DNA of 24,273 bases from Chitinophagales bacterium (GTDB lineage Bacteria > Bacteroidota > Bacteroidia > Chitinophagales > UBA2359): contig JAEUUX010000137.1 of assembly GCA_016787295.1 (NCBI GenBank), forward strand, positions 1 to 24,273, read 5' to 3'. The notes beneath the pieces were generated by a model that had not been told where the DNA came from, made no database searches, and was given only the letters and a program-made list of their open reading frames with translations. This document shows positions 440-18,056 of this stretch, in pieces. A program made the position numbers and the translations under genes. Each line of letters opens with the position of its first letter. The stretch's first letter is position 1.

Positions 440-459
440 TTTTTAATTAATATGGTTGG

Positions 460-1783: not shown

Positions 1784-2548
1784 ATGCGCCTAAACGCCAC
1801 TATCATTGTCCTTACATTTGTGGGTTTTGTGTTGTTTTTTGGCTACACTTTGCCACCTTTTGCCTTATTATTTTTATTATTGTTGGTCATTGCGGTCTTG
1901 TTGTGTGTTAGTTTGGTGATAAAATATCTCAACCGTCTCACCTTAGCACAATGGGCAATTTTGAACGAGCAACTACAAATCAATCTACAGATGCCCGAAC
2001 GCGCTTGGTTAGAGTTGGAGTGGAAATATCCAAGTATGGCGGGAATGTATTTGGGCAAAAAAATCAGCATTTCGATGTTTAATGCCGAAATGTTTGGCAT
2101 TACTGCGCCCCATACGCGAATTATAATCGATGCTATTCACTATGGCAATACCTTAGAGATACGGTCGGAAGGTGTTTATACGCAATTCGAAAAGTTTTGG
2201 TTAAAAGCCAACAATTTTTATACGCGCCAAGTACAAAAAGTATTACACTATTTTGGACGGGAGGTAGTTCCACTCAAAGGCGAGGTGGCAGTAGGTGATT
2301 TGGAGTTTGACCGTCGATTTTATGTCTTGACCAACAATGCTGGTTTTGTCAAAAGACTATTAGATCCCGACATAAGAGATATTATGAAAAATGATGTTTT
2401 TACCAAAATGGGTAAATTTGTTTTAAACCAAAGCCAACTGATATATACCGAACAAATCAACATCAATACTGATTTTGAGCGTCAACGGTTTCAAAAAATT
2501 ATTTTGTTGATGTATATGATGGTTAATCGAATGGAACGAATCCGATAG
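1784..2548 (+). CDS. Hypothetical membrane-anchored protein (two N-terminal TM helices, cytoplasmic domain of unknown function)
   Basis: ORF 1721..2548 with start moved to MRLNATIIV. Hydrophobic stretches IIVLTFVGFVLFFGY and LLFLLLLVIAVLLCVSLVI. No recognisable motif. Confidence 0.45.
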   Translation: MRLNATIIVLTFVGFVLFFGYTLPPFALLFLLLLVIAVLLCVSLVIKYLNRLTLAQWAILNEQLQINLQMPERAWLELEWKYPSMAGMYLGKKISISMFNAEMFGITAPHTRIIIDAIHYGNTLEIRSEGVYTQFEKFWLKANNFYTRQVQKVLHYFGREVVPLKGEVAVGDLEFDRRFYVLTNNAGFVKRLLDPDIRDIMKNDVFTKMGKFVLNQSQLIYTEQININTDFERQRFQKIILLMYMMVNRMERIR

Positions 2549-2556
2549 GAATCGAC

Positions 2557-2600
2557 AAACGCTGATAGGGATATTACTTCCTTATCAGCGTTTTGATATT
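2557..2600. terminator. Bidirectional rho-independent terminator between convergent genes
   Basis: AAACGCTGATAGGG / CCTTATCAGCGTTT stem (13 of 14 bp), 9-nt loop, followed by TTTTGATATTT. Confidence 0.6.
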
Positions 2601-2616
2601 TAATGGCTGTCTTTAT

Positions 2617-3126
2617 TTATGACTCTAAAAGGCGTTTTAACTGGCGCCTCGCTAAAAAAATACGACTTTTTACTGTACCAATGGGCAAATCCAAATCATC
2701 GGCGATTTCTTGGTATTTAAACCCATCTTTGTGCATCAAAAAAGGAATGCGAAACTCTTCTGCCAAATTGTTTATCGCATTTTGAATACTTTCAATGCCC
2801 AAATTACTCTCTCCCAAATTATAGGCAACGTCAGTAGCATGATTCAAATAATAGGCATTAACTGTTGCGTCTAAAATAGTATTGTGTTTTACTGAGCGTC
2901 TATAGTTGTTGATAAAGGTATTTTTCATAATAGCAAGTAACCATGCCTTAAGGTTAGTACCATCAGAAAATTTTTCTTGATTACCCAAGGCTCGATAAAT
3001 CGTTTCTTGTACCAAATCTTTAGCATCAATTGGGTTTTTGGTTAGTGCAAGTGCATACGGTTTTAAACTGTTTGCTAATTCCACAATGATTTGTGGATTG
3101 AAATCATTAATAATGGCTTTGCCCAT
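2617..3126 (-). CDS. ECF (sigma-24 family) RNA polymerase sigma factor, paralog 1
   Basis: Region-2 motif DLVQETIYRALGN...FINNYRR and region-4 motif LPIGTVKSRIFLARRQLKRLL. 169 aa. Confidence 0.9.
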   Translation of the reverse strand: MGKAIINDFNPQIIVELANSLKPYALALTKNPIDAKDLVQETIYRALGNQEKFSDGTNLKAWLLAIMKNTFINNYRRSVKHNTILDATVNAYYLNHATDVAYNLGESNLGIESIQNAINNLAEEFRIPFLMHKDGFKYQEIADDLDLPIGTVKSRIFLARRQLKRLLES

Positions 3127-3156
3127 GGTTTGAGGTTATTTATGATAGACTATTTG

Positions 3157-3200
3157 ATTGTGCAAATGTACCGCCTTTTTCCGAAATTTCCAAATTTTTG
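3157..3200 (-). promoter_or_regulatory. Sigma-A type promoter of ECF paralog 1 (-33 TTTG, 20-nt spacer, -7 TACATTTG)
   Basis: Minus strand reads AAATTTGgaaatttcggaaaaaggcggTACATTTG. The same architecture is upstream of paralog 2. Confidence 0.6.
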
Positions 3201-3475
3201 TTTAATTATACCACCATAAGTATTAAACGGTAGCCACTTTTTTTCATAATATGCTTTTTTTAGACGACCTAACATAGCAAAATGCCTAATATTATTGCTA
3301 AGATTCGGATTTTTTAATAAGCAAAAAAACGGACATTATTGACAAAAATAACATCATTTACATGGAATATTATACTGTATTTGCTCAAGAAAAAATAAAA
3401 AACCTGCTTGTTTTACCATAAACAAACAGGTTTTGGGGCGATGCAAATCGATGATACAATTGGACGATGTATTGA

Positions 3476-3985
3476 TTAGGTTTGTAAAAAGCGTTGCAGT
3501 TCGCGACGAGCCAAGAAAATGCGGCTTTTTACCGTACCAATGGGCAATGCCAAATCGTCGGCAATTTCTTGATATTTGAAACCGTCATAGTGCATTAAAA
3601 ATGGCACACGAAAATCATCAGACAAATTATCTATTGCCGCCTGAATGTTTTCCATTCCTAAGTTGCTCTCACCTGCATTTTTGGCAGTTTCCGAAGAGTT
3701 ATTTAGATAATAAGATGTTGCTGTTTCATCAAGAATAGTATTGCGTTTTATGGTGCGACGATAATTATTGATAAAAATGTTTTTCATAATCGTAAACAGC
3801 CATGCCTTGAGATTAGTGCCGTCAGAAAATTTTTCTTTGTTGCCTAATGCACGATAAATCGTTTCTTGCACCAAATCTTCGGCATCAGTCACATCTTTGG
3901 TTAGCATGACTGCATAAGGTTTCATTGTTGTGGTTAGTTCCACAATAACTTGTGAGTTATATTCAGTTATAATAGCTTGTCCCAT
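3476..3985 (-). CDS. ECF sigma factor, paralog 2 (about 70% identical to paralog 1, same length)
   Basis: Same region-2 and region-4 motifs (LPIGTVKSRIFLARRELQRFL). 169 aa. Confidence 0.9.
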   Translation of the reverse strand: MGQAIITEYNSQVIVELTTTMKPYAVMLTKDVTDAEDLVQETIYRALGNKEKFSDGTNLKAWLFTIMKNIFINNYRRTIKRNTILDETATSYYLNNSSETAKNAGESNLGMENIQAAIDNLSDDFRVPFLMHYDGFKYQEIADDLALPIGTVKSRIFLARRELQRFLQT

Positions 3986-4061
3986 AAAATTTTAGTTTTG
4001 ATGTTATAAAAATTATGTTTCCCCAAATCGCTAACTTAATCGATATTATAAAGTCTTTATT

Positions 4062-4100
4062 GATGTTACAAAAGTAACACTTTTTTGGGAGTTTTCCAAA
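4062..4100 (-). promoter_or_regulatory. Sigma-A type promoter of ECF paralog 2 (-33 TTTG, 20-nt spacer, -7 TACTTTTG), ~80-nt leader
   Basis: Minus strand reads AAATTTGgaaaactcccaaaaaagtgtTACTTTTG. Shares ACAAAAATTTGGAAA and TAC-TTTG-A-CATCAA with the paralog-1 promoter. Confidence 0.6.
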
Positions 4101-4280
4101 TTTTTGTGGAACTTTTTTTAAAAAAAGTTAAACCTTTTTGGTTTATTTATCTCAACATAGCTTTATATGGTGTAATTATGACAAAAATAACACTTTTGGA
4201 AGACTTTTACAAGTTTATTTTGTTAATAATGTTTAATTTTACATGAACACATAATACACAAAAAATTGAGTTGACTATAC

Positions 4281-4322
4281 AAAAAAAACACGTGCTTAAC
4301 TCATATTGAGACAAGCACATGT
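4281..4322 (-). terminator. Rho-independent terminator of the arginase-fold gene
   Basis: Minus strand: ACATGTGCTT ... AAGCACGTGT hairpin followed by TTTTTTTT. Confidence 0.55.
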
Positions 4323-4372
4323 TGTTTTGTAATTGTAGTTGGGGTGAGATGATGTTCGTTAGAAACTATTTT

Positions 4373-5533
4373 TTATTGTGTGGCGCGCCAATAGGCTTTG
4401 AGCCAACGGTCGGGAATTTCGTTGCGGCAGGCAATTTCGTAGTCGCGATAGGAGCATGGCACTAAGATATAGTTGGGTTTTCGTTTGCCACTCAAAGGCA
4501 CTTTGAGCCACCATCGGTCGCTTTTGCGGCTTTTGAGAAACACCAACTCGTGGTCTTCGTCTTTCATGCTCACGATGTAGGGAATATAGCTGCGCTCGTC
4601 TAAATCTGGAAAATCGTGTTTGCGTTCATAAAAACCCTCGACAAAATACCAAATCATTTGGGCAATGCTTTGGGCTGTATATCCGTTCAAGTCCAACAAA
4701 GGGTTGTATTCATAAAAACCCATAGAACGAATATGGTCACTCAAACCTGCATAGCGCGTCATTTGACAGGCTTCTTCGGCACCGAATCCGTGCGAAGAAG
4801 TGTGGGCAACAGCAGGAGCATCAGCCGCACGCAAGCAAGATAGATTGATAGCAAACATATTGGCATCGCGCAAAATCGGCTCTAAATCGGACATGTATTT
4901 TCTGATTTCGCCCAGGCTATAGCAGTCAAAATTTAGGTTTTCGAGTGTTTCTAAGATGTAGGGGTCAACCAAAGAACGCAAATAACCTATTTGAGCAAAA
5001 TGGCTAAGACTTTGTTTGTGGGTGATGATTTGGTACAGAAACGACCTGTTTTCTAAGGAATAATCGTTGGCATGGTTAAACAGCGCAATTTTTTCGTCGG
5101 CAAAAACAAAGTGTGTTTCGGGTTCGGTGGTGGTGTGTGCCAAAAATTGTCCATATGTCAAATCGCATGTGCCTCCGAGAATGATGGGGACAATTTCTTG
5201 TTCCATCAACACCTTCAATACGCTTTGCAAGGCAAAATAGGTGTCTTGTGGTGTTTCACCTGCTACAATATTGCCCAAATCGCAAATCTGTACGCCGTCG
5301 GTCCAGAAATAAAGTGGATAAAGATGTTTGCGGATAGCGTCGGGCGAGAGTTGGCAACCACCTTCCTCAGAACGGTCTTCACACACGCCTACAATGGCTA
5401 AACGCGTGCTTGTTAGGTCGGGAAAAGCGTTTTGGGTGTGAAGCATAAGTCGGCTTCCCCACTGATTGATGTTGAAATCGATGGGCGGCGAACACAGTTT
5501 ATCCGACAAAGGGCTTAGATAGTTTTTTAACAT
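4373..5533 (-). CDS. Arginase/formiminoglutamase-fold protein, divergent (canonical metal-binding motifs not conserved)
   Basis: Matches the ureohydrolase family: IVPIILGGTCDLTYG resembles the GGDHS loop, FAINLSCLRAADAP resembles SxDxDxxDP. The His/Asp ligands appear substituted. Family call is inference from memory of motifs. Confidence 0.45.
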   Translation of the reverse strand: MLKNYLSPLSDKLCSPPIDFNINQWGSRLMLHTQNAFPDLTSTRLAIVGVCEDRSEEGGCQLSPDAIRKHLYPLYFWTDGVQICDLGNIVAGETPQDTYFALQSVLKVLMEQEIVPIILGGTCDLTYGQFLAHTTTEPETHFVFADEKIALFNHANDYSLENRSFLYQIITHKQSLSHFAQIGYLRSLVDPYILETLENLNFDCYSLGEIRKYMSDLEPILRDANMFAINLSCLRAADAPAVAHTSSHGFGAEEACQMTRYAGLSDHIRSMGFYEYNPLLDLNGYTAQSIAQMIWYFVEGFYERKHDFPDLDERSYIPYIVSMKDEDHELVFLKSRKSDRWWLKVPLSGKRKPNYILVPCSYRDYEIACRNEIPDRWLKAYWRATQ

Positions 5534-5565
5534 ACTATTGTTTGCATTGAAAAAAGCGCGGAGGT

Positions 5566-6090
5566 TTAAAAACCGTGTTTTTTGAGTTCTTTGTTCATCA
5601 ATTTCATTTGTTCGGTTACTTGTTGCGGCGTATTTTCGGCTTTTAGTGCTTTGTCTAAATACATACGGCTACCGCGCAAATCGCGCTTCATGGCGCGGAT
5701 ATTGGCTAATTGGAAATACAAGGCACCTTCTTCTTCTTTGCGAACGCCAATGTCTAAGGCTTTTTTAAACATGCCTTCGGCGGCGGAGCTATTGTTGCGC
5801 TGAATGTCTATCATGCCGCGTGTGAGATAGTAGTAGGCTTTTTGAAATCTGCCTAAACGGTCGGGATAACGAGTCTCCGCAAGAACTTTTTCAGTCGCAT
5901 CTAAGTCGCCATTTTGCATGACTCGCATGGCGGCAAAAACGGTTCCATTCCAAAAAAAATCGAACACCAATAAACCACCTACCAATAGAGCAATGATGCT
6001 ACCAATGATATAGTGTCCTTCGATGATAAAAGATAGCGCGATAATGGCAGCAATGACTGCTATGATGATTCGATAACGCAATGTTAACAT
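5566..6090 (-). CDS. Membrane protein with two N-terminal TM helices and a TPR-like C-terminal domain
   Basis: Hydrophobic N-terminus (IIIAVIAAIIALSFII, IIALLVGGLLVF). Helical repeat region (AEGMFKKALDIG...YLDKALKA). Confidence 0.5.
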   Translation of the reverse strand: MLTLRYRIIIAVIAAIIALSFIIEGHYIIGSIIALLVGGLLVFDFFWNGTVFAAMRVMQNGDLDATEKVLAETRYPDRLGRFQKAYYYLTRGMIDIQRNNSSAAEGMFKKALDIGVRKEEEGALYFQLANIRAMKRDLRGSRMYLDKALKAENTPQQVTEQMKLMNKELKKHGF

Positions 6091-6117
6091 AATAAAACTA
6101 AATAAAGTTGTGGGCTT

Positions 6118-6867
6118 TTATGAATTAAACGGGTCTTGGTTGTTAGTAGGGCGCGGAAGTGTGGGGTCTTTGACGGGTGGCGTTTCAATGACGGCTTGGT
6201 GTGGTGACAAACGATGTGAGTGTTTCATGGCTACAAAGGCATAGCGAATACCTATGGGCAACAATAGGAGTGAAAACAAAGCTAATATTTCACTGGCTTC
6301 TTGCATAATAAAAAAATCGTATAGCCCATGCAAAATGGTGGCGCTTAATAAACCCAATAAGAGGTAACGAAAGCGGTCGACGGGAGCAGCGTGTTTTGCC
6401 AAACCCACATAGTAACCCATGATAATGCCAAAAACAGCATGGGCAGGAATGGCAGTAAACATACGGACAATGCCAATCCCGATACCGCCTTGCAAGACAT
6501 ACAAAACGTTTTCTAATGCTGCAAATCCCATGCTCACCATCACACCATAGACAATACCATCAAATGGCTCATCAAATTCGGCTTTGGGATACATATAGTA
6601 GCGCAAAAACAAAAATTTGCCCGCCTCTTCGGTTAAGGCAACCACTATAAAAGCATAAAAAGCTACATTTAGCAAACCTCCTGTTTCGGGAATGCCCCAT
6701 TTTTCATTGGCTTCACCTGCCAGCAAAGGCAAAAAAGCACTAAACATGCCAAGCAAAAAAGAGATAAATAGGTTGATAAAAGGTTCTTTTTCGTACTTGT
6801 CGCGACTATAAATGTAGCAAACCACAGCCACAACAGGAGCTAAAGCCAATAGTAATAGTTGTACCAT
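6118..6867 (-). CDS. PrsW-family intramembrane metalloprotease (anti-sigma-factor site-1 protease family)
   Basis: Multi-pass membrane protein with EExxK (ALTEEAGKFLFLRYY), FxxxH (FTAIPAHAVFGI) and a C-terminal HGLYDF motif. Start moved to MVQLLLLALAPV. Confidence 0.7.
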   Translation of the reverse strand: MVQLLLLALAPVVAVVCYIYSRDKYEKEPFINLFISFLLGMFSAFLPLLAGEANEKWGIPETGGLLNVAFYAFIVVALTEEAGKFLFLRYYMYPKAEFDEPFDGIVYGVMVSMGFAALENVLYVLQGGIGIGIVRMFTAIPAHAVFGIIMGYYVGLAKHAAPVDRFRYLLLGLLSATILHGLYDFFIMQEASEILALFSLLLLPIGIRYAFVAMKHSHRLSPHQAVIETPPVKDPTLPRPTNNQDPFNS

Positions 6868-6961
6868 ATTGTATGGGAGTAAGGGTGATGTATGTTTATG
6901 CTTGTTTGGAAAAATTATAAGCCAAATAATAATAACCGCAACATGGCAAGCCAACTCTATC

Positions 6962-8449
6962 TTAGCGATTCATCAAATTCAGAAATTCTTCGTTAGATTT
7001 AGTGTCGCGCATTCGTTCCAAAAGCGTATTCATGGCTTCTTCGGCGGTCATGTCCGTGAGGTGGTTGCGCAATATCCAGATGCGTTTGAGGGCATCGCGA
7101 TCCAACAAAAGGTCTTCGCGGCGCGTGCCTGAAGCGGGAATATCTACAGCGGGGAAAATACGTTTGTTGGCTAATCGGCGGTCGAGCTGCAACTCCATAT
7201 TACCTGTACCTTTGAACTCTTCAAAAATCACTTCGTCCATGCGCGAGCCTGTGTCGATGAGGGCGGTTGCCAAAATGGTGAGTGAGCCACCGTTTTCGAT
7301 GTTGCGTGCCGAGCCGAAAAACTGTTTGGGTTTGTGGAGCGCATTTGCCTCAACGCCTCCCGATAGCACTTTGCCCGAGGCAGGCGCAACGGTATTGTGG
7401 GCGCGAGCAAGGCGGGTTATCGAGTCCAAAAGTATTACTACATCATGCCCACACTCCACCAAGCGACGCGCTTTTTGCAGAGCAATGGTCGATACTTTGA
7501 CATGGCGTTCGGCGGGTTCGTCGAAAGTAGAGGCAATGACTTCTGCCCGCACCGAGCGTTCCATGTCGGTCACTTCTTCGGGGCGTTCGTCGATGAGCAG
7601 TATTATAAGGTATACTTCGGGGTGATTTTGGGCGAGAGCGTTGGCAATTTCTTTGAGAAAAAAAGTTTTACCTGTTTTGGGTTGCGCCACAATTAGTCCA
7701 CGCTGTCCTTTGCCAATGGGAGCAAACAAATCGATAAGGCGAAGCGAATAGCTATTAGTATTTTGGCTAAGATTAAATTTCTGGTTTGGGAACAAAGGTG
7801 TTAGGTAATCAAACGGCACGCGGTCGCGAATTTCTTCGGGATTTCTGCCATTGATAGCCGACACTTTGAGCAAAGCAAAGTATTTTTCACCCTCTTTGGG
7901 CGGGCGAATCGCTCCACAAACCGTATCACCCGTTTTTAAGCCAAACAATTTGACTTGTGAAGGCGATACATATATATCGTCGGGCGAACTAAGGTAGTTG
8001 TAGTCAGCCGACCGCAAAAAACCATAGCCGTCGGTCATCATCTCCAGCACACCCTCTCCCTCAATGAGTCCGTCCAAATCGTAGTTAAAATTGTCGGTGA
8101 AGTCATCGGTGTCTATGTTTATTCGACCTATGTTGGTGTTTTTTTCTTCGTTGTCGGAAGGTATATTTGGGGGCAAAACTGTATTCGTTTCTTCGTTGCT
8201 ATATGGCGTGTTATCCATAGCACTGTCGGTCAAATTGGTTTTACCTTTTTTGGTCACTATGTGGCGTGTGCGTGCGGTTTTGGGTTTTTCGGTAGAAGTG
8301 CCATTGTTTTCGACACGATGTTGTTCGTTTAATATGTGATGAATTAGCTCGGCTTTAGAGAGTTTTTTATAGTCAGGAATGAACAAAGACTCGGCAATAG
8401 CTCTCAATTCGTTGTCTAACAAATCGTTGAGTTGTAAAATATCATACAT
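6962..8449 (-). CDS. rho: Transcription termination factor Rho with an N/S/T/D-rich N-terminal insertion
   Basis: Walker [19 protein letters not shown]-binding and ATPase regions. A low-complexity insert of about 80 aa ([13 protein letters not shown]...[17 protein letters not shown]) lies between the N-terminal helix bundle and the OB fold. Confidence 0.95.
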
Positions 8450-8779
8450 AAAGGAAAGGTGGAAATTTGGTAATAGATAGGAAAAAATTAAGGTGGGAAA
8501 ATGGTCATTTGACCACTACAAAGGGTGGGAAGCGGAAAAACGGTACAAAGGTAGCTTTTTTTTGCGAGATTATAACATCTATGGCTTAGAAAAATGTAAA
8601 AAAATAGTACTGACGGGCTTTGAACAGTTTATTGAAGCCATTTTGTTGCGACGAAAGGAGAGAAAAACAACAAAATTTGTCTATTTTTGCTTGGAAAATA
8701 GCCCAAAATAACTCGAATTGCCCTTTTGCTACACCAATTCACAATTTTTGCTTATCTTTGTGACCAACATTTTTCAGCC

Positions 8780-9580
8780 ATGCGTTTAGATGTATTTTTA
8801 GTGGAGCGACAATTGCTGCTTAGTCGCGAAAAAGCCCAATTAGCCATAGCCGCAGGATTGGTATTGGTGAATGACAAAGTAGCCCGAAAAACTGCCCAAC
8901 AGGTTAGCCCTACGGACGTGGTGCAGTTGCTGGTACCACCTTTGGCTTATGTGAGCAAAGGCGGCGACAAATTAGCGAAGGCTTTGCAGGTGTTTGCCTA
9001 CGATTGCCACAACAAAACAGTGTTGGATATTGGTGCGTCCACAGGCGGATTCACGGATTGCGTGCTGCAAGCAGGTGCGCAAAAGGTGTATGCGGTCGAT
9101 GTTGGGTCGGGTCAATTGGTGGCGAGTTTGCGGGAAAACCCCAAAGTGGTGGTGCTTGAAAATACGCACATCAAAGACCTAACTGTTGCCGATATTGACC
9201 ATGCCGCCATCGATTTGGTGGTGATTGACGTGTCTTTCATCAGTTTATCGCAAGTTTTGGGTTTGCTTTTGCCTTTTTGCCAAGCACATACGCACATTAT
9301 CAGCCTCATCAAACCGCAATTCGAAGCAGGACAAGCCAACATTCGCAGAGGCGGCATTGTGACCTCGCCCAATGTGCATATTTCGGTCATCAAAAACCTT
9401 CAACACGCTGCCGCCACACACCAGCTTTTTTTGCACCAACTTACTTTTGCGCCTATCCAAAGTATCCAAAAAAACATAGAATATCTCGCCCTATGGCAGT
9501 GGCAAATGCCGCCCGAAGCGGTGGATATTGCGGCTGTGGTGCAAGCGGCGCAAGTGGTGCAGAAGGGTTTGGGGAAGTAG
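8780..9580 (+). CDS. tlyA: TlyA-family rRNA 2'-O-methyltransferase (S4 domain plus FtsJ-like MTase)
   Basis: MRLDVFLVERQLLLSREKAQ (S4 domain). VLDIGASTGGFTDCVLQAGAQKVYAVDVG (SAM-binding motif). Confidence 0.85.
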   Translation: MRLDVFLVERQLLLSREKAQLAIAAGLVLVNDKVARKTAQQVSPTDVVQLLVPPLAYVSKGGDKLAKALQVFAYDCHNKTVLDIGASTGGFTDCVLQAGAQKVYAVDVGSGQLVASLRENPKVVVLENTHIKDLTVADIDHAAIDLVVIDVSFISLSQVLGLLLPFCQAHTHIISLIKPQFEAGQANIRRGGIVTSPNVHISVIKNLQHAAATHQLFLHQLTFAPIQSIQKNIEYLALWQWQMPPEAVDIAAVVQAAQVVQKGLGK

Positions 9581-9700
9581 GAAAAGTAGCATAAATTAGG
9601 AGTGTTTATAGGCAAGTTAAACGTCAGTTCATTCGACAAATTAAAGTAATTGATTATATTACGACAAAAATAAAAAAAATGAACGAAAAATGTTTTTTTT

Positions 9701-9770
9701 TACTGAAAAACTTGACATGTTTGGGGAAAATTTTGTATCTTTGCGGCGAAATTGTTGCTCTGCTTGTTGG
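9701..9770 (+). promoter_or_regulatory. Promoter and leader module C, copy 1 (-7 TATCTTTG at 9736-9743; leader ATTGTTGCTCTGCTTGTT)
   Basis: The -7 box matches the Bacteroidota consensus; -33 is TTGA at 20-nt spacing. The module is shared with 14801-14870 and 17190-17235. Confidence 0.55.
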
Positions 9771-9858
9771 AAAGAGGGTGATGATGTTCATTTTTTTCAA
9801 AAGGCGAACGAAGGTTCGGGTAATAAATAATTATCATCTATTTTTAAAATAAAACACA

Positions 9859-11634
9859 ATGGAAAACAAAATCATAGCAGGATACATTAACGAAGATTTC
9901 AAAAAAGACTTTGGAATTGAAGAAACCAAAGAGGACACCTTGTTTGAAATGTTTGCCAATTATTGTATCATTTCAAGAATACACCCCGAAGCATTTTCCA
10001 CTGATTTTGACAAAATTGAGGATATGAATATTGGGGGCGGTGAAGATACAGGCATTGACGGATTAGGGATTATTGTGAATGAACATTTGGTTTCAAGCAT
10101 AGAGGAAATAGATGACCTTAAAAACTTCCGTAGAAGATTAGACGTGCAATTTATATTTGTGCAAGCAAAAACTTCCCCTAAGTTTGAGGCTGAAAAAGTT
10201 GGTACTTTCATTTTTGGCGTAAAAGACTTTTTTAGAGAACAACCATCAATCAAGTTTAATGATAATATCAAAATTTTCAGAGAACTGAAAGACTATATTT
10301 ACAAAAATAGTATTGACATTGAAGTCAAGCCAACTTGTCAGATGTACTATGTAACGACAGGGAAATGGGTTGATGATAAAAATGTTTCAGGCAGAGCTAA
10401 CTCTGAAAAAGCCGAATTAGAAAGGCTTGGAATATTTAGCAGTGTTGATTTTATTCCAATTGACGCAGATACTTTGGGTAGCATTTACCGTGAGATTAAG
10501 AATAAAGTCAAAAAGGAAATAATTTTTGAAAAACGTGCTTCATTACCTTTTATTAAGGGAGTTAGAGAGGCTTATATTGGAGTATTACCAATTTCAGAAT
10601 ACATCAATCTAATAAAAGGTTCTGATAACAAAATTCAGAAAAATTTATTTTATGACAATGTACGAGATTTTTTAGGTACAAATTCCGTCAATAGTGAAAT
10701 TGCAAATACAATCAAAAATAAAGAAGAACAAGATAAGTTTGCAATTCTGAATAATGGTGTTACAATCGTTGCCAAGTCAATAAATCCAATAGGCGACAAA
10801 TTTACAATTAGCGACTTTCAAATAGTAAACGGGTGCCAAACAAGCCACGTATTATTTAATAACAGAGATTATTTAATTGAAAGTAAGGCATTTATTCCAA
10901 TTAAACTAATTGTTACAGATGATTACGAAGTGGCTAATCAAATTACGAAAGCAACCAACCGACAAACAGAAGTAAAAGTTGAGGCATTTGCTTCCTTAGA
11001 GCCTTATCATAGAAAATTAGAAGAGCATTACAATTCATACCCCAAAGCAACCCGCATTTATTACGCAAGACGCAGTAATCAATATGATAATGCTATTCCT
11101 GCAATTCCAAAGGAAAGAATTATTACACTTGCGGCACAAATTAATGCTTTTGTTTCTGTTTTCTTAAATGAACCTCATAGCACTCACAGGTATTATGGAG
11201 AACTTTTAAAGGCTTACGAAGATAAGTTGTTTCAAGCCGAACATAATCCTGATATGTATTATGTAAGTAGTTTTGCATTGCAGGTTGTTGAAAAGGTGTT
11301 TAAGAGTAAACCACCAAAAATTGACGCATTTTATCGTGCAAACAAATTTAAGCCTCATCTACTTGTAGTTTTGAGGATTATAACTTGTGGTTTTAAATAT
11401 CCACAATTTACAAGCAAGGAAATGGCAGCATATTGTGAGAAACTGCATACACTACTTTTGAATGAAACAGAAACTTTAAAAGCATTAGCAACAGCAACAA
11501 AAATTGTATCTAATGCTATAAACAACTACAAACAAAAGTATGGTGCGACAAATGTTCGTGAATTACACAGAATGCGCAACTTTACGTTTGAACTGATAGA
11601 GGAGGCGAAAAAATATCAACCAAAGAGCAAATAA
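9859..11634 (+). CDS. AIPR-family abortive-infection protein (591 aa), solitary
   Basis: Size, composition and N-terminal region are typical of AIPR/Abi-like phage-resistance proteins. Low-GC codon usage. Family call is from memory, not a search. Confidence 0.55.
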   Translation: MENKIIAGYINEDFKKDFGIEETKEDTLFEMFANYCIISRIHPEAFSTDFDKIEDMNIGGGEDTGIDGLGIIVNEHLVSSIEEIDDLKNFRRRLDVQFIFVQAKTSPKFEAEKVGTFIFGVKDFFREQPSIKFNDNIKIFRELKDYIYKNSIDIEVKPTCQMYYVTTGKWVDDKNVSGRANSEKAELERLGIFSSVDFIPIDADTLGSIYREIKNKVKKEIIFEKRASLPFIKGVREAYIGVLPISEYINLIKGSDNKIQKNLFYDNVRDFLGTNSVNSEIANTIKNKEEQDKFAILNNGVTIVAKSINPIGDKFTISDFQIVNGCQTSHVLFNNRDYLIESKAFIPIKLIVTDDYEVANQITKATNRQTEVKVEAFASLEPYHRKLEEHYNSYPKATRIYYARRSNQYDNAIPAIPKERIITLAAQINAFVSVFLNEPHSTHRYYGELLKAYEDKLFQAEHNPDMYYVSSFALQVVEKVFKSKPPKIDAFYRANKFKPHLLVVLRIITCGFKYPQFTSKEMAAYCEKLHTLLLNETETLKALATATKIVSNAINNYKQKYGATNVRELHRMRNFTFELIEEAKKYQPKSK

Positions 11635-11703
11635 AAAACGGTTACCAACATTATGTTTTCCGAAAAGACAGACTATAGGCTTTTGTGCTTTCCATAAACT
11701 TTA

Positions 11704-11755
11704 TGCGAAGGGCAAGGATGGTGTGTTAAATCCTGTCCTTCGCATGACTTTTCCG
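11704..11755 (+). terminator. Terminator-like hairpin downstream of the AIPR gene
   Basis: TGCGAAGG...CCTTCGCA stem followed by TGACTTTTCC. Confidence 0.45.
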
Positions 11756-12018
11756 CCGTTTCCTCCCTTTTCCATAACCACTTGATTGCCAGAAGTTTAT
11801 ATAAGTATATTTTTATAAATTTAGGAAATATTAAATTTATAGCTTATTGTTTATTGGGGTTTTTTGAAAAAATGAGAGGAATTGGTGTTTCAATTTAAAC
11901 AAACAAAAATAAATCGCCCAACAAAGTATATACACATCAAGATTACTACACCATTTATAGACCGAAATGGTCTCTACAATTAAGCAAACTTTTTTACAAA
12001 ATTTAAATTTTATTCTCA

Positions 12019-12191
12019 TGGCAAAGAAAATCACACCGCAACAAAATCAGTCCAATATGCAAAATGCCAACAAAGGCACGAAAGGGACAAACAAACAGTA
12101 CGACCAAAATCAAGGTAATAAAGGTAAACAACTCAATCCAACGCCAAACAATAGCAATACGGATAAAGGCGGAGGAAAGGAGCCGAATTGA
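12019..12191 (+). CDS. Small Q/N/K-rich hydrophilic protein (57 aa), questionable
   Basis: MAKKITPQQNQSNMQNANKGTKGTNK... Followed by a perfect 13-bp hairpin. It could equally be a non-coding AT-rich region. Confidence 0.25.
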
Positions 12192-12246
12192 CGACTAAAA
12201 AAGCAAAAACAAAGCATGGTTGTATCTGATGGAGAAAACTCAATCT

Positions 12247-12284
12247 GCAAACCCAACGTAGAGCGGCTACGTTGGGTTTGTTAC
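12247..12284 (+). terminator. Perfect 13-bp hairpin AAACCCAACGTAG-agcgg-CTACGTTGGGTTT
   Basis: Read directly. The trailing U-tract is weak (TTGTTACC). Confidence 0.5.
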
Positions 12285-12349
12285 CATTGTACGAAATAAA
12301 AACAAACACACCAAAACCCACACAAATTCCTCCAAAAACCAAAAATTCC

Positions 12350-12385
12350 ACGCCAAATTTTGCGAAAAATTGCAAGATTTGGCGT
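12350..12385 (+). repeat. Module A, copy 1: 14-bp hairpin ACGCCAAATTTTGC-loop-GCAAGATTTGGCGT (one G-U pair)
   Basis: Copy 2 at 14706-14741 is a perfect 14-bp stem. The single difference between copies is compatible with wobble pairing in RNA. Confidence 0.6.
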
Positions 12386-12468
12386 AACTTTGTCTCCCGA
12401 AACCAACATTTATGCCACCAGAAGTATTAACCATTGCCGAACTATATGTTAACAAAAAAAATAATTAA
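12385..12468 (+). promoter_or_regulatory. Module B, copy 1: -7-like TAACTTTG followed by a conserved 18-codon upstream ORF (MPPEVLTIAELYVNKKNN) overlapping the MNT start
   Basis: Nearly identical module at 13161-13240, which carries a 17-codon ORF MPPEVLTIAEIKAQYPD. The att/atc difference is synonymous. Confidence 0.45.
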
Positions 12469-12742
12469 ACAGCGAATCCAACAAAATAAGGACAAACTCG
12501 ACAGTTTGGGTATTGACCTTATTGGGCTTTTTGGCTCTTATGTAAGAGAAGAACAAAGAGCAGATAGCGATATTGACATTTTTATCTCCTTCAAAGGAGG
12601 ATACGAAACGTTTAATAACTTTATGGACTTATCCTATTTACTCGAAGAAATATTTAAAGGAGTAAAAGTGGAAATAATAACCCAAAACGGATTAAGCCCC
12701 TACATTGGACCCAAAATTTTAAAGGAGGTAGAATATGTCTAA
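12446..12742 (+). CDS. mntA: MNT-type nucleotidyltransferase (antitoxin of a HepT/MNT type VII TA pair)
   Basis: GLFGSYVREEQRADSDIDIFISF matches GSxxRGxxxxxSDxD. The ORF-track start is TTG at 12434; ATG at 12446 is preferred. Confidence 0.8.
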   Translation: MLTKKIIKQRIQQNKDKLDSLGIDLIGLFGSYVREEQRADSDIDIFISFKGGYETFNNFMDLSYLLEEIFKGVKVEIITQNGLSPYIGPKILKEVEYV

Positions 12743-13085
12743 ATTGCCACTCGATTATCTGCGCCATATTTTGGACGAATGCAACTATGTCGTTTCTGTT
12801 ATTAAGGAAGATACCGTAAAAAATGACTTGCTTGATAATGAAACATTAAAACGAGCCATTGTCAGAAGTTTAGAGATAATAGGCGAAGCCACAAAAAAAA
12901 TACCTGCCGATTTTAAAGTTAAATGGACAACAATATCATGGAGAAACATGGCAGGGATGAGAGATAAACTTATTCACGATTATATGGGGGTCAATTATTC
13001 CATTGTTTGGGACGTAGTCAAAAATATCATTCCTATTCTCAAAGAGCAAATAGAAGAAATAATTAAAGAAGAAAATGCTCGCTAA
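12735..13085 (+). CDS. hepT: HepT/DUF86 RNase toxin
   Basis: Rx4HxY motif RDKLIHDYMGV. 8-bp overlap with the upstream MNT gene is typical of this pair. Confidence 0.8.
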   Translation: MSKLPLDYLRHILDECNYVVSVIKEDTVKNDLLDNETLKRAIVRSLEIIGEATKKIPADFKVKWTTISWRNMAGMRDKLIHDYMGVNYSIVWDVVKNIIPILKEQIEEIIKEENAR

Positions 13086-13160
13086 CAAAATACAGAACAG
13101 AACAATAAGCCATTTAGTCGGTTTGTTACCCATGAATGTCATTTTTTCTTAAAAAAACTA

Positions 13161-13240
13161 AACTTTGTCTCCCAAAACCAACATTTATGCCACCAGAAGT
13201 ATTAACCATCGCCGAAATAAAAGCGCAATATCCCGACTAA
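13161..13240 (+). promoter_or_regulatory. Module B, copy 2, upstream of the fic gene, with its mini-ORF (13187-13240)
   Basis: AACTTTGTCTCCCAAAACCAACATTTATGCCACCAGAAGTATTAACCATCGCCGAA aligns with 12386-12441. Confidence 0.45.
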
Positions 13241-13297
13241 TGGGTGTTCTACCGAGCAAGAGCCGTTGTGTGTAATTTTTAAACCAGAAAAGAAAAA

Positions 13298-14662
13298 ATG
13301 ATAACTATTGACCAATCTCTACTGAGTCCTGACCTTATTCAAAGACTCGATAATCTACATTCTGAAATTACTAAATTTCGTCAAGAAGGCGAATTAGACC
13401 AACTTTCAAAAGAAAAATTGCGGGACTATTTTAGAACACAACATATTTTCCATAGCGCAGGGATTGAAGGCAATAGGCTGACCTTGCAAGAAACGATGCT
13501 GGTTTTGAAAGAAGGGGTTACCATCTCTGAAAAATCCATTCAAGACTCAATAGAAGTTAAAAATTTAGGTATTGCCTTTGATTTTTTTTATGAATTGGCA
13601 CAAGAAGGCACTCCTATTTCGGAAAATTACATCAAGCAGCTCCATCAATTGGTAGTCGGTAACGATCCCTATTTGAATGCAGGAAATTACAGAAATGTGG
13701 GTGTAGTTATCACAGGTTCAGAGCATACACCGCCCGAACCTTTTGAAGTACCTTTCAAGATGCAAGAACTAATGGATTGGTTGAACGAAAATTTTGACGA
13801 AGAAAACCCTATTGTTTTGGCAGCAGTAGCTCATCACGAAATGGCAAAAATTCATCCTTTTGCAGACGGAAATGGTAGAACAGCAAGGTTGCTTCTTAAC
13901 CTTATTCTGTTGAAAAAAGGCTATCCGATTTGTAGCATTAAACGAACCGAACGTCCAAGATATTATGAGGCGATGTCGGAGGCAGACAGCGGTAACTATC
14001 ATCAAATTATTGAAATGGTAGCAGAAAGCAGCGCTGAACTTTTTGCAGTGTATGTCCGAATAAGGGAAGAAACTAACAGAAAGACACAGTTTGCTAAAAA
14101 GTGGGGAAATAAAGACATAGAAAACAGGCTCAGAAAAGAGAAAGGACGATTTGAAATTTGGCAAAATAGAATGAATCAAATCAAGTTGGAATTTAGGCAG
14201 TTTGCCAATTTGTTAAGCGAGAATTTAGAAACATATAGTGCTACTTTCTACGAATATCCGCCACTAACTTTTGAAACGTTTCAAGAATTAGTGGAACAAG
14301 GTAGTGCTAACAATACTTTTTTCTTTTCCATTCGTTTCTACCAAAGAGAAACAAAGAAGATTGTACAGACATTCCTTTTCAGATTTTTTAGAGACCACAA
14401 TAAATTTGGTATTGACAACCCTATTGTGCCTTTGGAACTGAATTGTTTTAATCCCGAAACAAAAAATTTTCTTGTTATAGAACGTTTCACTTGGGCAGAC
14501 CGCATACAACTAAGAGCTTTTTACTTCAATCAGTCAAATGATTTGGTAATTAGAAAATATAATCGTTCAACAAAAACCATCAACGAAGAAATCAACCTAA
14601 ACCTATATAAAGTGGCTGAAACATTTTTTGATGATGTACTTGCTAACGTGCTTGGCGTGTAA
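13298..14662 (+). CDS. Fic/DOC-family protein (AMPylator) with an intrinsic inhibitory motif
   Basis: Fic motif HPFADGNGRTARLL. N-terminal SAGIEGN fits the (S/T)xxxE(G/N) auto-inhibitory helix. Confidence 0.85.
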   Translation: MITIDQSLLSPDLIQRLDNLHSEITKFRQEGELDQLSKEKLRDYFRTQHIFHSAGIEGNRLTLQETMLVLKEGVTISEKSIQDSIEVKNLGIAFDFFYELAQEGTPISENYIKQLHQLVVGNDPYLNAGNYRNVGVVITGSEHTPPEPFEVPFKMQELMDWLNENFDEENPIVLAAVAHHEMAKIHPFADGNGRTARLLLNLILLKKGYPICSIKRTERPRYYEAMSEADSGNYHQIIEMVAESSAELFAVYVRIREETNRKTQFAKKWGNKDIENRLRKEKGRFEIWQNRMNQIKLEFRQFANLLSENLETYSATFYEYPPLTFETFQELVEQGSANNTFFFSIRFYQRETKKIVQTFLFRFFRDHNKFGIDNPIVPLELNCFNPETKNFLVIERFTWADRIQLRAFYFNQSNDLVIRKYNRSTKTINEEINLNLYKVAETFFDDVLANVLGV

Positions 14663-14705
14663 AACAAAACTATGCTCAACACACACAAAAAAAACCAAAA
14701 ATTCC

Positions 14706-14741
14706 ACGCCAAATTTTGCAATATTTCGCAAAATTTGGCGT
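14706..14741 (+). repeat. Module A, copy 2: perfect 14-bp hairpin ACGCCAAATTTTGC-aatatttc-GCAAAATTTGGCGT
   Basis: Read directly. Confidence 0.6.
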
Positions 14742-14800
14742 AATTTCGTTTACGATGCTTTACAAATTATGGCAAAAATGCGCTAAGAGAAATGAATTTT

Positions 14801-14870
14801 TTTACTAGAAAGTTAGACTATTAAAAAAAGTTTGTATCTTTGCAATTGAATCATTGCTTTGCTTGTTACA
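14801..14870 (+). promoter_or_regulatory. Promoter and leader module C, copy 2 (-7 TATCTTTG at 14834-14841), ~290-nt leader to the next gene
   Basis: TTTACTaGAAAgTTaGAC...TTTGTATCTTTGC...ATTGCTTTGCTTGTT aligns with 9701-9770. Confidence 0.5.
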
Positions 14871-15131
14871 GGGTTCCTTATTTGATAGATTTTGAGACTT
14901 CTGAATAGTAGAATACCGAGAGGATTAGTAAATTGATGAACTTGAAAAAATGTAGAGAACAAAGTGTGGACATATATGGCGGCGAAAACCCAACCCGCGA
15001 AACCAACACATGGCGGTAGCTATGCCTACATAAATAATTGCATTTAAATAATATAATACATTACGATAATTACTTGTATAAATATAAACAATACTGCTTG
15101 TTATGTCTCATTCAAAAAAACAAATTAAACA

Positions 15132-15917
15132 ATGGGAAATAAATTCAAAATAGTTCTCTTTTTAATTTTTGGAATTTCGACAAATGCTTATTGCTGTTTA
15201 ATCGCAACACAAGAAAGAATAATTCCAATTGGTACTAGCGAAAATTGCTTAATTGGAATTGAAATAATTTCAAATAGATATGGAGGGGGCGATTACGGAG
15301 AAACCGCAGTTTGGAATTATAAATTCACTTTAAAAGGCTTCAACGAAGATTACTCAGAATTCCTAATTGAGGAATTGAGTTTCGAAAAGGTAATAAAGAA
15401 TAATAATTTAGAGAATATATTGAAAAATAAAATTAATATCGCTCTTCAAATTTGTAATGATTTAACAGATTTTGAAGTATTTGAGCCAAAAGAAATTACT
15501 TTTTGTGATTTTCAAAAGAATTGTTCTGTTCTCAAATTAATCGAATCCGCAGGGCAATTAAAATTCCGCACAATCAACGAAAAAAAAAATCATCAAATAC
15601 ACTATTTAAGTGAGAATTATACAGGAGAAATTGCTAAACAATACAAAGAATACTTTAAAGCCCATTTTGATTCAAGTGATATTATTGGAACAGATTTAAA
15701 AATTTCGTCAATTAGACAATACGAAAATAGTTCTTACAAATTATTGATTTTTCATTTAGGAACGGGACAGGAACCAGAGGAAGTAGAAACAGGTAAATTG
15801 CGAAAAAAAGAGTATAAATTTGACAGGGAATTTAAAACGATTGAAGATGTTATATTTATTGAACCAATTTTACATCATGGAGCTGGATTCGATTATTTTA
15901 AAATGGATAAAAAATAA
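15132..15917 (+). CDS. Secreted or lipoprotein of unknown function (261 aa)
   Basis: N-terminal signal peptide MGNKFKIVLFLIFGISTNAYC. No recognisable domain. Confidence 0.5.
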   Translation: MGNKFKIVLFLIFGISTNAYCCLIATQERIIPIGTSENCLIGIEIISNRYGGGDYGETAVWNYKFTLKGFNEDYSEFLIEELSFEKVIKNNNLENILKNKINIALQICNDLTDFEVFEPKEITFCDFQKNCSVLKLIESAGQLKFRTINEKKNHQIHYLSENYTGEIAKQYKEYFKAHFDSSDIIGTDLKISSIRQYENSSYKLLIFHLGTGQEPEEVETGKLRKKEYKFDREFKTIEDVIFIEPILHHGAGFDYFKMDKK

Positions 15918-16449
15918 AAAAGGGTTGCAACAGGGTATACGGCAATCAAAGGAGACTGTGCCTGCTCAACCCATTTTATTCAAAAAAACAATCTCAATTA
16001 GCTACTTTTCGCTGAACAAAGGTTTGTATATTTTGGTATTTAGCATAATGTTTTGGGGATTCGGATGGGTAGACTTTTTGTTCATTGCCAACCGATATGT
16101 CGTATTATTGAAACCATATTACAACAAAAATAGGTCAAAAATAACAGAATTTGACACTTTTATGCATTATTTTCGCGTATTTGAGATGTAAAATAGGATT
16201 TTGAACTAAGTATTTCAATTTGTTTTTTGCCAATATTTTTTAACGAAAGGTAAGGTGAGTGGAGAACGAAATTAAAATAAAAACAACTATTAACACAAGG
16301 TATTGCCAAAAGCGGAGTTGAATGGCTTGAGTAGACATGGTCATAGCTGTAAGCAAGTGGCGTACAACGTAGCGAGCAGACAACAATCAAGGAGACTGCG
16401 TATGCACAAGCCGTTTAGGGTATTTTAAAACAACAAAATATAACAAATA

Positions 16450-17019
16450 ATGAACACACTTTCATTTGACATATTGCCTATTAATGAATATCATGACTAT
16501 GAAGTACGAATTCTTATTGACAACAGCGACATTCTTGGGAATGACTATTTAGGAATAGACCCGCCTGAATTTTTCGAACAACATAATTTATTAACTGCTG
16601 GACGAATATTAATAGGTAGATGCTCTTGCGGTGTTGTAGGTTGCGATGACTATCCAGTTTACGTAAACGTTTTTAATGACAAAGTTATCTGGACAAATGA
16701 CGACGGACTCAATTTAGCATTTGATAAATCAGCATATGAAAAAACCATTTTACATGCCAAAATAGACCATACTTGGGAGAGCAAAGAAAGAAGAATTGAA
16801 AGACTAACTTCTGATGTCTTAAAAAACACCAAGACAATAGATGATTATAAGTTTGACTGGACTTCTGCAAGAATAAAAGAAAACATAATTATGGTAAGTT
16901 ACAGCAAAGACGGGCAACAAAAATTATTTGAATTTAACTGGGATGGGCAAACAGAGCAAAGTGCATTGAAAGAAGCTAATCATTTCTTGACACAACGACC
17001 AATACAAAACATCCTATAA
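16450..17019 (+). CDS. Cytoplasmic hypothetical protein (189 aa) with a CxCGxxGC cluster
   Basis: ORF with no TM segment. Motif RCSCGVVGCDDYP. No family recognised. Confidence 0.45.
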   Translation: MNTLSFDILPINEYHDYEVRILIDNSDILGNDYLGIDPPEFFEQHNLLTAGRILIGRCSCGVVGCDDYPVYVNVFNDKVIWTNDDGLNLAFDKSAYEKTILHAKIDHTWESKERRIERLTSDVLKNTKTIDDYKFDWTSARIKENIIMVSYSKDGQQKLFEFNWDGQTEQSALKEANHFLTQRPIQNIL

Positions 17020-17189
17020 CAAGTTTTGCGTCATTGAGCTAACATACACACGATTCGTAGGTATTATTGACCATTTATAGCTAACTTCCCTCCCTCCGAA
17101 GCCTCAAAAGCCTTCGAAAGGAGGGATTTTTATTTGACATGAATGCTTTTTCCAAAAAAATTGCCCCACAATTGCCAAAAAAATGAAAA

Positions 17190-17235
17190 ATCCGTACCTT
17201 TGCCCCCAAGTTTGTTGCTTTGCTTCTTTGAAAGC
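17190..17235 (+). promoter_or_regulatory. Promoter and leader module C, copy 3 (-7 TACCTTTG at 17195-17202; leader TTTGTTGCTTTGCTTCTTTG)
   Basis: The -7 box and a leader homologous to copies 1 and 2. Confidence 0.5.
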
Positions 17236-17294
17236 AGAGTGATGAGGGTAATTATATTTTTTCACAAATGGCGGGCTAAAGTGCGATTAAAAAA

Positions 17295-17936
17295 ATGAAA
17301 AAAAAGAAAATATTTTGGGTTCTTTCAATCTCAATAATTTTGACAATCATCACAACAATTTGGTTAGCAAATAGAAAAATTGATGAAATAGCCAAAGATT
17401 CTGTTTATAATGAAGTTTCAAAAATTCCATACAATAAGGTAGGGTTGTTATTGGGGACTTCCAAAACATTAAGCTCCGGCGAAGAAAATTTGTATTTTAT
17501 GAACCGTATTGTGGCTGTAAATGAATTATTCAAAGCCCATAAAATTTCTTACATCGTGATTAGTGGCGATAATAGCAAAAAAGAATACAATGAACCATTA
17601 GACATGAAAAACGAATTATTGAAAGTAGGCATTCCTGATAGTTCAATAATTTTGGATTATGCAGGATTTAGAACTTATGATTCGGTGATTCGAATAAATA
17701 AAATATTTGGTCAAGAAAAATTTACAATTATTTCGCAAGAATTTCATAATCGAAGAGCCATTTATATTTCAAATCGATTAGGATGCGAAGCCATAGGATT
17801 CAACGCAAAAGATGTCAATATGTACAAGGGATTTAGAACCAAATTAAGAGAAAATTTTGCTCGTGTAAAAGTATTCATTGATTTTTGGGTTAATGAAGAA
17901 CCGAAATTTTTGGGAGAAAAAATAGACATAAAATAA
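17295..17936 (+). CDS. SanA/YdcF (DUF218) family envelope protein
   Basis: N-terminal TM anchor. Matches a remembered SanA/DUF218 consensus (VISGDN, YNEP, DYAGFRTYDS, FH); family call is inference, no search run. Confidence 0.7.
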   Translation: MKKKKIFWVLSISIILTIITTIWLANRKIDEIAKDSVYNEVSKIPYNKVGLLLGTSKTLSSGEENLYFMNRIVAVNELFKAHKISYIVISGDNSKKEYNEPLDMKNELLKVGIPDSSIILDYAGFRTYDSVIRINKIFGQEKFTIISQEFHNRRAIYISNRLGCEAIGFNAKDVNMYKGFRTKLRENFARVKVFIDFWVNEEPKFLGEKIDIK

Positions 17937-17992
17937 ATAGGCGAAATTATATTGCGACCTATCTCTCCAAAAACCGAATTAGTACAAACACA

Positions 17993-18042
17993 CAAAAAGT
18001 TGTCACTTTCCATTAGAAAGGACAACTTTTTGTGAAAATAGC
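17993..18042. terminator. Bidirectional terminator between the sanA-like gene and the OMP gene
   Basis: AAAAAGTTGTCACTTTC-cattag-GAAAGGACAACTTTTTG. Confidence 0.55.
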
Positions 18043-18056
18043 GTGAATATATATTT

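Follow-up and report, generated by a model that had tools for sequence, protein, structure and literature searches.

A low-GC interval between tlyA and an outer-membrane protein gene holds strain-variable candidate defence cassettes in an uncultured Chitinophagales lineage

The closest counterparts of the locus described here are found in Pseudomonas aeruginosa, with its core defence hotspots cDHS1 and cDHS2 (PMC10250203), and in Escherichia coli, with its defence-island hotspots (PMC10121019); for cDHS1, exchange by homologous recombination via the conserved flanks has been proposed (PMC10250203). Most mapping of defence hotspots has been done in cultured Proteobacteria. A further point of reference is the rAID-1 arrays of Bacteroidales, whose 5' end carries a XerD-like tyrosine recombinase and which have conserved intergenic motifs. 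Here we describe the organisation of a defence hotspot, with core-gene flanks, a cargo of low G+C content (GC) and an apparent between-strain turnover without a local recombinase, in an uncultured lineage of Chitinophagales. The window that we analysed is a contig of 24,273 nucleotides (nt) from a Chitinophagales bacterium (JAEUUX010000137.1, assembly GCA_016787295.1), and the region in question is the interval 9581–18056, which lies between tlyA and the gene for a putative outer-membrane β-barrel protein (OMP). This interval is probably a chromosomal defence and accessory hotspot of its species, set between the core genes tlyA and OMP/hemCD, with at least three slots; the gene content of the slots differs between strains, and its turnover would proceed by homologous recombination.

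The evidence comes from conspecific metagenome contigs, which were retrieved by exact-protein look-up and encode either an identical Rho or an identical OMP; TlyA searches of genome and metagenome contig collections returned distant homologues only, at 39–48% identity and without synteny information. Set against these contigs, the interval breaks up into three or more slots that vary independently of one another, with strain-conserved segments between them. The features on which this comparison turns are, from left to right:
8780–9580, plus strand: tlyA, encoding an S4 and FtsJ rRNA methyltransferase (Pfam FtsJ 1e-34, and S4); the conserved left flank, present in all haplotypes.
9685–9828, plus strand: module P, copy 1, with the −7 box TATCTTTG (9736–9743), a leader, the hairpin CGAAC-GAAG-GTTCG and then TAATAAAT; it precedes the AIPR gene.
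9829–11767, plus strand: slot-1 cassette of the window haplotype, with the AIPR/AbiU gene (9859–11634), assigned by profile matches, and a 3' hairpin; delimited by strain comparison.
11768–11883, plus strand: module S, single copy on the contig, preceding a 57-aa open reading frame (ORF); between-strain homology resumes here after slot 1, and the module is 99% identical in L209 and L210.
12018–12191, plus strand: the 57-aa ORF, rich in Lys, Asn and Gln; a gene call in L001 and L190, and conserved to 12073, where the L209 contig ends.
16450–17019, plus strand: unk189 (JNM36_09840), encoding a cytoplasmic protein with invariant Cys58, Cys60 and Cys65; slot 2 of the window haplotype.
17023–17294, plus strand: SanA upstream region, with module P copy 3 and, at about 17085–17130, a terminator-like hairpin; haplotype b matches it at 99.7% identity.
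17295–17936, plus strand: SanA/DUF218 (NCBIfam SanA E=2e-50, 171 bits, under the 363-bit cut-off); GC 0.29.
17938–17982, no strand assigned: slot 3, 45 nt in the window.
18057–18878, minus strand: the putative OMP gene (weak NCBIfam OMP_TP0733 match); the conserved right flank.

The window haplotype was assembled independently, at 100% identity, in L001, L168 and L190. Among the contigs with identical Rho or OMP, whose flanks are 99.3–99.7% identical, slot 1 is seen in three states and slots 2 and 3 in two each, and the alternative cassettes are all of low GC (0.30–0.36). At slot 1, haplotype c (L209, L210 and L215, identical Rho) is collinear with the window over 368–9828 at 98.9–99.3% nt identity and leaves its sequence exactly at 9828/9829, where a cassette begins that encodes a 440-aa protein with a C-terminal DUF4145 domain. 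L215 ends within this cassette; L209 holds the entire 1448-nt replacement, with genes for the 440-aa and an 82-aa protein, and both L209 and L210 rejoin the window at 11768 with 97.5–99% identity. Exact boundaries for the slot-1 cassette are thus obtainable from public metagenome contigs alone. Haplotype d (L211, identical Rho) keeps module P to 9748, just past the −7 box, and then carries a gene with an AntA domain, followed by an ISL3 transposase gene. On the right-hand side, haplotype b (L172, L174, L177 and L178, identical OMP; L176 has the same junctions) is 99.4% identical to the window from 24069 down to 17983, has a 1733-nt slot 3 with a gene for a 517-aa membrane protein on the minus strand, and returns to 99.7% identity in SanA and its upstream region (17937–17023). 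At slot 2 the same haplotype carries a DUF4241 gene where the window has unk189; of the two edges of this swap only the right one is placed, at 17022/17023. The DUF4241 gene is preceded by the 3' part of module P and by a copy of module S, 87% identical, which lies to its left in L172; its product is 78% identical to a Flavobacterium cerinum protein (best match overall 87%), and a literature search on DUF4241 found no papers. The identical OMP is encoded on 21 contigs, among which both the window haplotype and haplotype b are represented. In L176 (JGI 3300006092, 2224–3777) the 517-aa gene of slot 3 is called as two pieces of 336 and 66 aa, which may reflect a frameshift or a pseudogene.

The original prediction, made from the letters of the window alone, had pictured one low-GC defence island inserted between tlyA and the OMP gene, with SanA as its right-hand member. 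Its core, an acquired, cassette-like mosaic with defence genes, agrees with the conspecific contigs, which carry different genes at the same place; relatives do not share one gene content, slots 1 to 3 differing between strains. A single insertion, by contrast, gives way to at least three slots, split by module S with the 57-aa ORF and by SanA with its upstream region. SanA itself is a conserved gene and not a variable cassette, despite its low GC.

The intergenic modules of the interval recur in families, all of which exceed a shuffled-sequence null (maximum null score 27). In addition to P copy 1 and S they comprise:
12314–12393, plus strand: module Q, copy 1, with the palindrome ACGCCAAATTTTGC...GCAAGATTTGGCGT (12350–12385); it abuts the −7 box TAACTTTG (12385–12392) of MNT-HepT.
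12386–12444, plus strand: module R, copy 1, before MNT; 95% identical to 13161–13219.
13161–13240, plus strand: module R, copy 2, with a remnant ORF (ATG at 13187, MPPEVLTIAEIKAQYPD, stop at 13238–13240), upstream of Fic.
14677–14749, plus strand: module Q, copy 2, with its palindrome at 14706–14741, directly downstream of Fic; terminator-like.
14787–14867, plus strand: module P, copy 2, 5' half only, with the −7 box TATCTTTG at 14835–14842, 265 nt upstream of unk261.
17185–17294, plus strand: module P, copy 3, with the −7 box TACCTTTG at 17195, preceding SanA.

Module P has a constant layout of a −7 box (TATCTTTG or TACCTTTG), a stretch TTGTTGCTYTGCTT, a leader, a hairpin CGAAC-N4-GTTCG and TAATAAAT. 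Its copies are only ~72% alike, and none turned up in a handful of loci taken from other species. The stem of the hairpin (CGRAC-N4-GTTCG) is kept while the loop varies; for a conserved structure of the leader RNA there is just one compensatory pair among effectively three sequences. The −7 boxes of the form TAnnTTTG upstream of several genes presumably belong to Bacteroidota promoters. A conserved leader peptide in P was considered and ruled out, as a 1-nt indel breaks the frame in the 99%-identical haplotype c and the DUF4241 copy is without a start codon. The Q palindrome, 36 nt long and near-perfect (ACGCCAAATTTTGC..GCAARATTTGGCGT), has the score of a terminator-like hairpin, and it may serve as operator, as terminator or in both roles. 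Module R contains the start of a small ORF (12412 onwards; 13187–13240), which is stopped in the Fic-proximal copy, with WVF... following in frame; it resembles the 5' remnant of a small antitoxin-like gene, broken and present in duplicate before MNT and Fic. No shared module precedes unk189, and the 57-aa ORF is preceded by S only. The upstream repeats of the original prediction are therefore real and above chance but heterogeneous: where one copy of a single promoter module had been expected for each transcription unit, there are three families (P, Q and R), Q being terminator-like, R carrying a broken ORF and unk189 having none. A GCTAACA motif noticed near some cassette ends was discarded, with 5 found versus 2.8 expected by chance. 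We propose that the promoter-leader modules could act both as portable expression signals and as homology arms.

How the cassettes could have been exchanged is suggested by the distribution of differences on the conserved side of the slot-1 junction. Against L209 there are 0–4 differences per 250 nt over 4750–8750 and 8, 7 and 6 in the last bins, the final 6 falling in just 79 nt of module P. L211 shows a like rise through tlyA, so that the gradient is present in two haplotypes; in the 3' part of tlyA the differences amount to 5–8 per 250 nt, and divergence between strains climbs about tenfold in tlyA towards the junction. The ends of the swaps, in turn, coincide exactly with conserved intergenic modules. 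Together, the gradient and the exact resumption of homology at these modules favour allelic replacement through the conserved flanks, and the pattern of sequence identity suggests that this took place by homologous recombination. In such a scheme DNA from diverged relatives would enter, with the left-hand crossovers falling in tlyA and module P and the right-hand ones in either module S or the region upstream of SanA, and whole cassettes would be swapped without a locally encoded recombinase. Each unit would have a Bacteroidota-type promoter of its own, reading along the plus strand; a number of these are paralogous copies of the shared promoter-leader modules. The cassette genes probably also move horizontally, to judge from the homologues of unk189 and unk261 in unrelated contexts and from the similarity of the DUF4241 protein to Flavobacterium.

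Base composition and the scans for mobility functions bear on two alternatives. GC is 0.332 over 9581–18056 and 0.417 in the remainder of the 24.3-kb contig; in 500-nt windows it stays at 0.27–0.39 over 9501–18250, compared with 0.41–0.53 in rho and tlyA (7001–9500) and 0.43–0.52 in hemCD. Overall GC and GC at third codon positions (GC3) are 0.47/0.51 in rho and 0.50/0.54 in tlyA. The eight plus-strand genes of the island span GC 0.28–0.41; island genes generally have GC 0.28–0.36 and GC3 0.21–0.35, the exceptions being the 57-aa ORF (GC 0.41) and the doubtful unk104. The fall begins directly past the tlyA stop (9580), and the predicted abrupt drop after rho and tlyA, from 0.47–0.50 to 0.33 over 9581–18056, is thus confirmed. 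A second low-GC stretch (1500–4400, with two ECF sigma genes) has the same structure in other strains, and variability on the contig is therefore not marked by low GC alone. This stretch, like SanA with its low GC and its conservation between strains, is what one would expect of an ancestral low-GC region inherited vertically and without horizontal turnover; that explanation is already contradicted by the different genes at three slots in conspecific contigs, and synteny is lacking for the cassette-gene homologues of other taxa, which leaves it scarcely credible. A decayed mobile element, either a remnant of an integrative element or a composite delivered by insertion sequences, with its mobility genes lost in the window haplotype, could instead be suspected from slot 1 of the conspecific haplotype d, where the ISL3 transposase adjoins a phage-type AntA anti-repressor domain; the ISL3 copy means that insertion sequences do visit the locus, and the broken ORF in R and the scattered partial copies of Q and R suggest past rearrangements. 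However, domain, tRNA and Rfam scans were negative: none of the ORFs scanned on the 24-kb contig has an integrase, transposase or recombinase domain, and the contig has neither tRNA nor tmRNA nor any Rfam family; conjugation genes, phage structural genes and att-like exact repeats were not found in the region, phage and plasmid DNA searches gave no match apart from the MNT-HepT genes, and the three slots vary independently and not as one unit. This origin is accordingly unlikely. The earlier statement that integrase, transposase and tRNA are missing is correct for the window; the absence of any mobility gene holds for the window haplotype and fails in haplotype d, and, while nothing att-like is present, diverged copies of P stand in direct orientation at the two ends of the region.

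A different mechanism for the same strain differences would be a capture array of the integron or rAID kind, in which a tyrosine recombinase with its gene elsewhere in the genome would act on module P, adding and removing cassettes one at a time at the hairpin CGRAC-N4-GTTCG with the TAATAAAT that follows it, so that every cassette gains a ready-made promoter and leader. Co-directional genes of low GC spaced by repeated intergenic modules, as in the rAID-1 papers, fit this idea, as do the preservation of the hairpin stem while the loop changes and the single-gene homologues whose similarity is confined to the ORF. Moreover, three cassettes of different content (AIPR, the DUF4145 gene and DUF4241) lose their similarity to P at one and the same position, after TAATAAAT, a common end point that a site-specific mechanism would also predict. 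On the other hand, no recombinase is encoded in the 24 kb, and attC-type R''/R' sites are lacking, with 0 attC-like candidates on both strands in a simple pattern scan with an end-complementarity filter, which is not the covariance model of IntegronFinder. The modules are of several kinds (P, Q, R and S), unk189 has none, the P copies are diverged and P is lacking in the few other-species loci, no motif is common to the right-hand cassette ends, the putative P leader peptide is frame-shifted in a 99%-identical strain, and the rise of divergence through tlyA indicates homologous recombination. We regard a capture array as rather improbable. A more specific version, in which P is the attachment site of an undescribed trans-acting cassette-capture system of Chitinophagales, integron-like in function and with genes gaining their own promoter, is very doubtful; were capture to be the true explanation, the orphan cassettes (unk261, unk189, DUF4241 and the two-gene DUF4145 unit) would hold new immunity genes, directed against phage or toxins. 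The shared end point in P also counts against a hotspot that turns over by homologous recombination, and it is joined there by several other points. The recombinase search covered the 24-kb contig and not the rest of the genome, where such an enzyme could act in trans; no empty site occurs among the strains compared, and the original insertion events are thus not reconstructed; the comparisons rest on short metagenome contigs, none of which spans the whole region in haplotypes b, c and d; and unk261, unk189 and DUF4241 may have no connection to phage.

Turning to the cargo of the hotspot, the recognisable genes of the window haplotype are predicted toxin or abortive-infection modules. Besides the AIPR/AbiU gene of slot 1 they are:
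12434–13085, plus strand: MNT (12434 or 12446 to 12742) and HepT (12735–13085), a type VII toxin-antitoxin pair.
13298–14662, plus strand: class II Fic protein (AMPylase-type), 454 aa (Pfam Fic 8e-26; PADLOC SoFic and PDC-S04, both ~3e-37).

The AIPR protein matches PADLOC AbiU over its full length (7e-135, residues 3–584 against profile positions 3–535 of 537), and further matches Pfam AIPR (1e-46, 160 bits versus a cut-off of 25) and a PHROG Abi-alpha-like family (8e-77). MNT combines Pfam NTP_transf_2 and Polbeta matches with PADLOC PDC-S09 (2e-30), and its partner a HepT-like match (1e-24). The Pfam scores of the pair are above cut-off and those of the NCBIfam MntA and HepT equivalogs under the curated ones; the two genes overlap by 8 nt, and the GSx..DxD and Rx4H motifs are present. 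The Fic translation carries HPFADGNGRTAR together with an N-terminal inhibitory SxxxEG motif (SAGIEG), the combination that defines class II, namely HxFx(D/E)GNGRxxR with an inhibitory (S/T)xxxE(G/N). Its closest relatives are FICD-type class II Fic proteins (PDB FICD, 4e-36 over residues 46–245), and it falls short of the NCBIfam SoFic equivalog (37.6 bits versus a cut-off of 550). The C-terminal ~200 residues (~250–454; nt 14050–14662) have no match in Pfam or PDB sequences; this half of the protein stands where SoFic-type proteins have their winged-helix region, and may function in sensing or in target binding. All the PADLOC defence matches (AbiU, PDC-S09, SoFic/PDC-S04) lie inside 5 kb, PDC-S09 and PDC-S04 being candidate systems only. 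AbiU, MNT-HepT and the class II Fic would each be a self-contained single-locus module, with a defence role predicted from family membership. Profile matches and motifs agree with the gene content first proposed (AIPR, MNT/HepT, a self-inhibited Fic, two unknowns and SanA/DUF218), and nothing supports the label of stress genes for any gene of the island.

Two further features concern the unknown proteins of the interval:
15132–15917, plus strand: unk261, a predicted secreted protein or lipoprotein.
15877–16191, plus strand: unk104, a 104-aa ORF that overlaps the end of unk261; called in one assembly, with an atypical GC3 of 0.40.

Neither unk261 nor unk189 has a family match in Pfam, PADLOC, NCBIfam or PHROG, and the 57-aa ORF has none in Pfam, PADLOC or PHROG. 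The unk261 family is very small, with 17 clusters, all from Saprospiraceae or Chitinophagales metagenomes; a fold search gave no match, and homologues occur in unrelated co-directional accessory arrays. One such array, a long one on L207 (Logan SRR20820731), also has two neighbouring genes at 7323–8179, the one with EAD11 and Lockin domains and the other with TIR_2, a pair that looks like a candidate conflict system. For unk189, a fold search returned weak CdiI-like matches, and the family comprises 34 clusters in a word-indexed search and 437 representatives in a profile search; domain fusions among its members were uninformative. Close homologues in other Chitinophagales stand in unrelated runs of co-directional accessory genes, and their DNA similarity (~79–82% nt identity) is lost within 43 nt of the ORF. 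A 76%-identical homologue in a Chitinophagales metagenome-assembled genome (L203:1–3816, JAXLUN010000008.1) has an Mrr-type restriction nuclease on one side and, on the other, an EcoRI-type methylase with a GmrSD/HNH gene, a defence context in a different species. unk104 is probably not a real gene, in view of its atypical GC3 and the lack of homologues beside the relatives of unk261. The spacer before unk189 (15918–16449) measures 532 nt, and short-read contigs of several samples break within it at 16213–16229. A short list of small and mobile orphan genes emerges, made up of unk189, unk261, DUF4241, the two genes of the DUF4145 cassette and the C-terminal domain of Fic; since their slots otherwise hold defence genes, these candidates are reasonable ones for testing.

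Outside the interval, the contig holds several features of separate interest. Two tandem ECF sigma-factor paralogues (2617–3126 and 3476–3985, both minus strand) share 72–74% nt identity, each with a repeated promoter-like block upstream. An 820-aa protein (21349–23811, minus strand) with Pfam MVP_shoulder (6e-31) and a Vault_3 repeat (2e-06) is, by these profile matches, a predicted bacterial homologue of the eukaryotic vault shell protein, and is kept in all conspecific contigs. A dispersed repeat of ~235 nt stands in direct orientation at both contig ends (202–434 and 24041–24273; 85–91% identical, no Rfam match); short-read contigs from many samples break within these end repeats, at 393 and 24069, and the repeat is probably a multi-copy intergenic element of the genome.

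With regard to described systems, the region is a core defence hotspot, or defence island, by the working definition: at least two recognised defence systems are clustered, and the same core flanks enclose different cargo in conspecific strains, with no hallmark gene of a mobile element in the window and an ISL3 transposase in haplotype d. It shares with the core defence hotspots a variable defence set between core genes, low GC and a position not obviously within a mobile element, and differs from them in its phylum, its much smaller size (~8 kb), the subdivision into slots by conserved internal modules, the paralogous promoter-leader modules that precede several cassettes, and the flanks, where no non-coding RNA gene was found. 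The rAID-1 arrays have in common with it co-oriented short genes, GC below 41%, repetitive intergenic sequence, content that varies between strains and some members without a known family, the fold of unk189 being CdiI-like by a weak match; modules P, Q and R are likened to the rAID-1 intergenic motifs by description, not by motif sequence. Unlike those arrays, which belong to a different order, the interval has tlyA upstream and no recombinase on the 24-kb contig, and its recognisable cargo is of the anti-phage or toxin kind (AbiU, MNT-HepT, Fic) and not immunity genes of the type VI secretion system. Same-strand single-gene cassettes, including toxin-antitoxin and defence genes, and precise replacement boundaries recall integron arrays and CALINs; yet the contig has no IntI integrase, the pattern scan found no attC sites, and the cassettes have their own promoters and long spacers (200–530 nt) in place of promoterless genes behind Pc, so that the region is not an integron. 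Among the gene families, the full-length AbiU profile, the nucleotidyltransferase and HEPN motifs and the Fic and SxxxEG motifs tie the cargo to AbiU of Lactococcus, type VII MNT-HepT and SoFic- or FICD-type class II Fic, from which it departs in the NCBIfam MntA, HepT and SoFic scores below cut-off and in the ~200 unmatched C-terminal residues of Fic. The region, from a poorly studied lineage, belongs to a kind already described and gives no evidence for a new mechanism; what is unusual is that cassette boundaries coincide with paralogous promoter-leader modules, and what is new is that, within one species, three slots are filled with other genes on other contigs.

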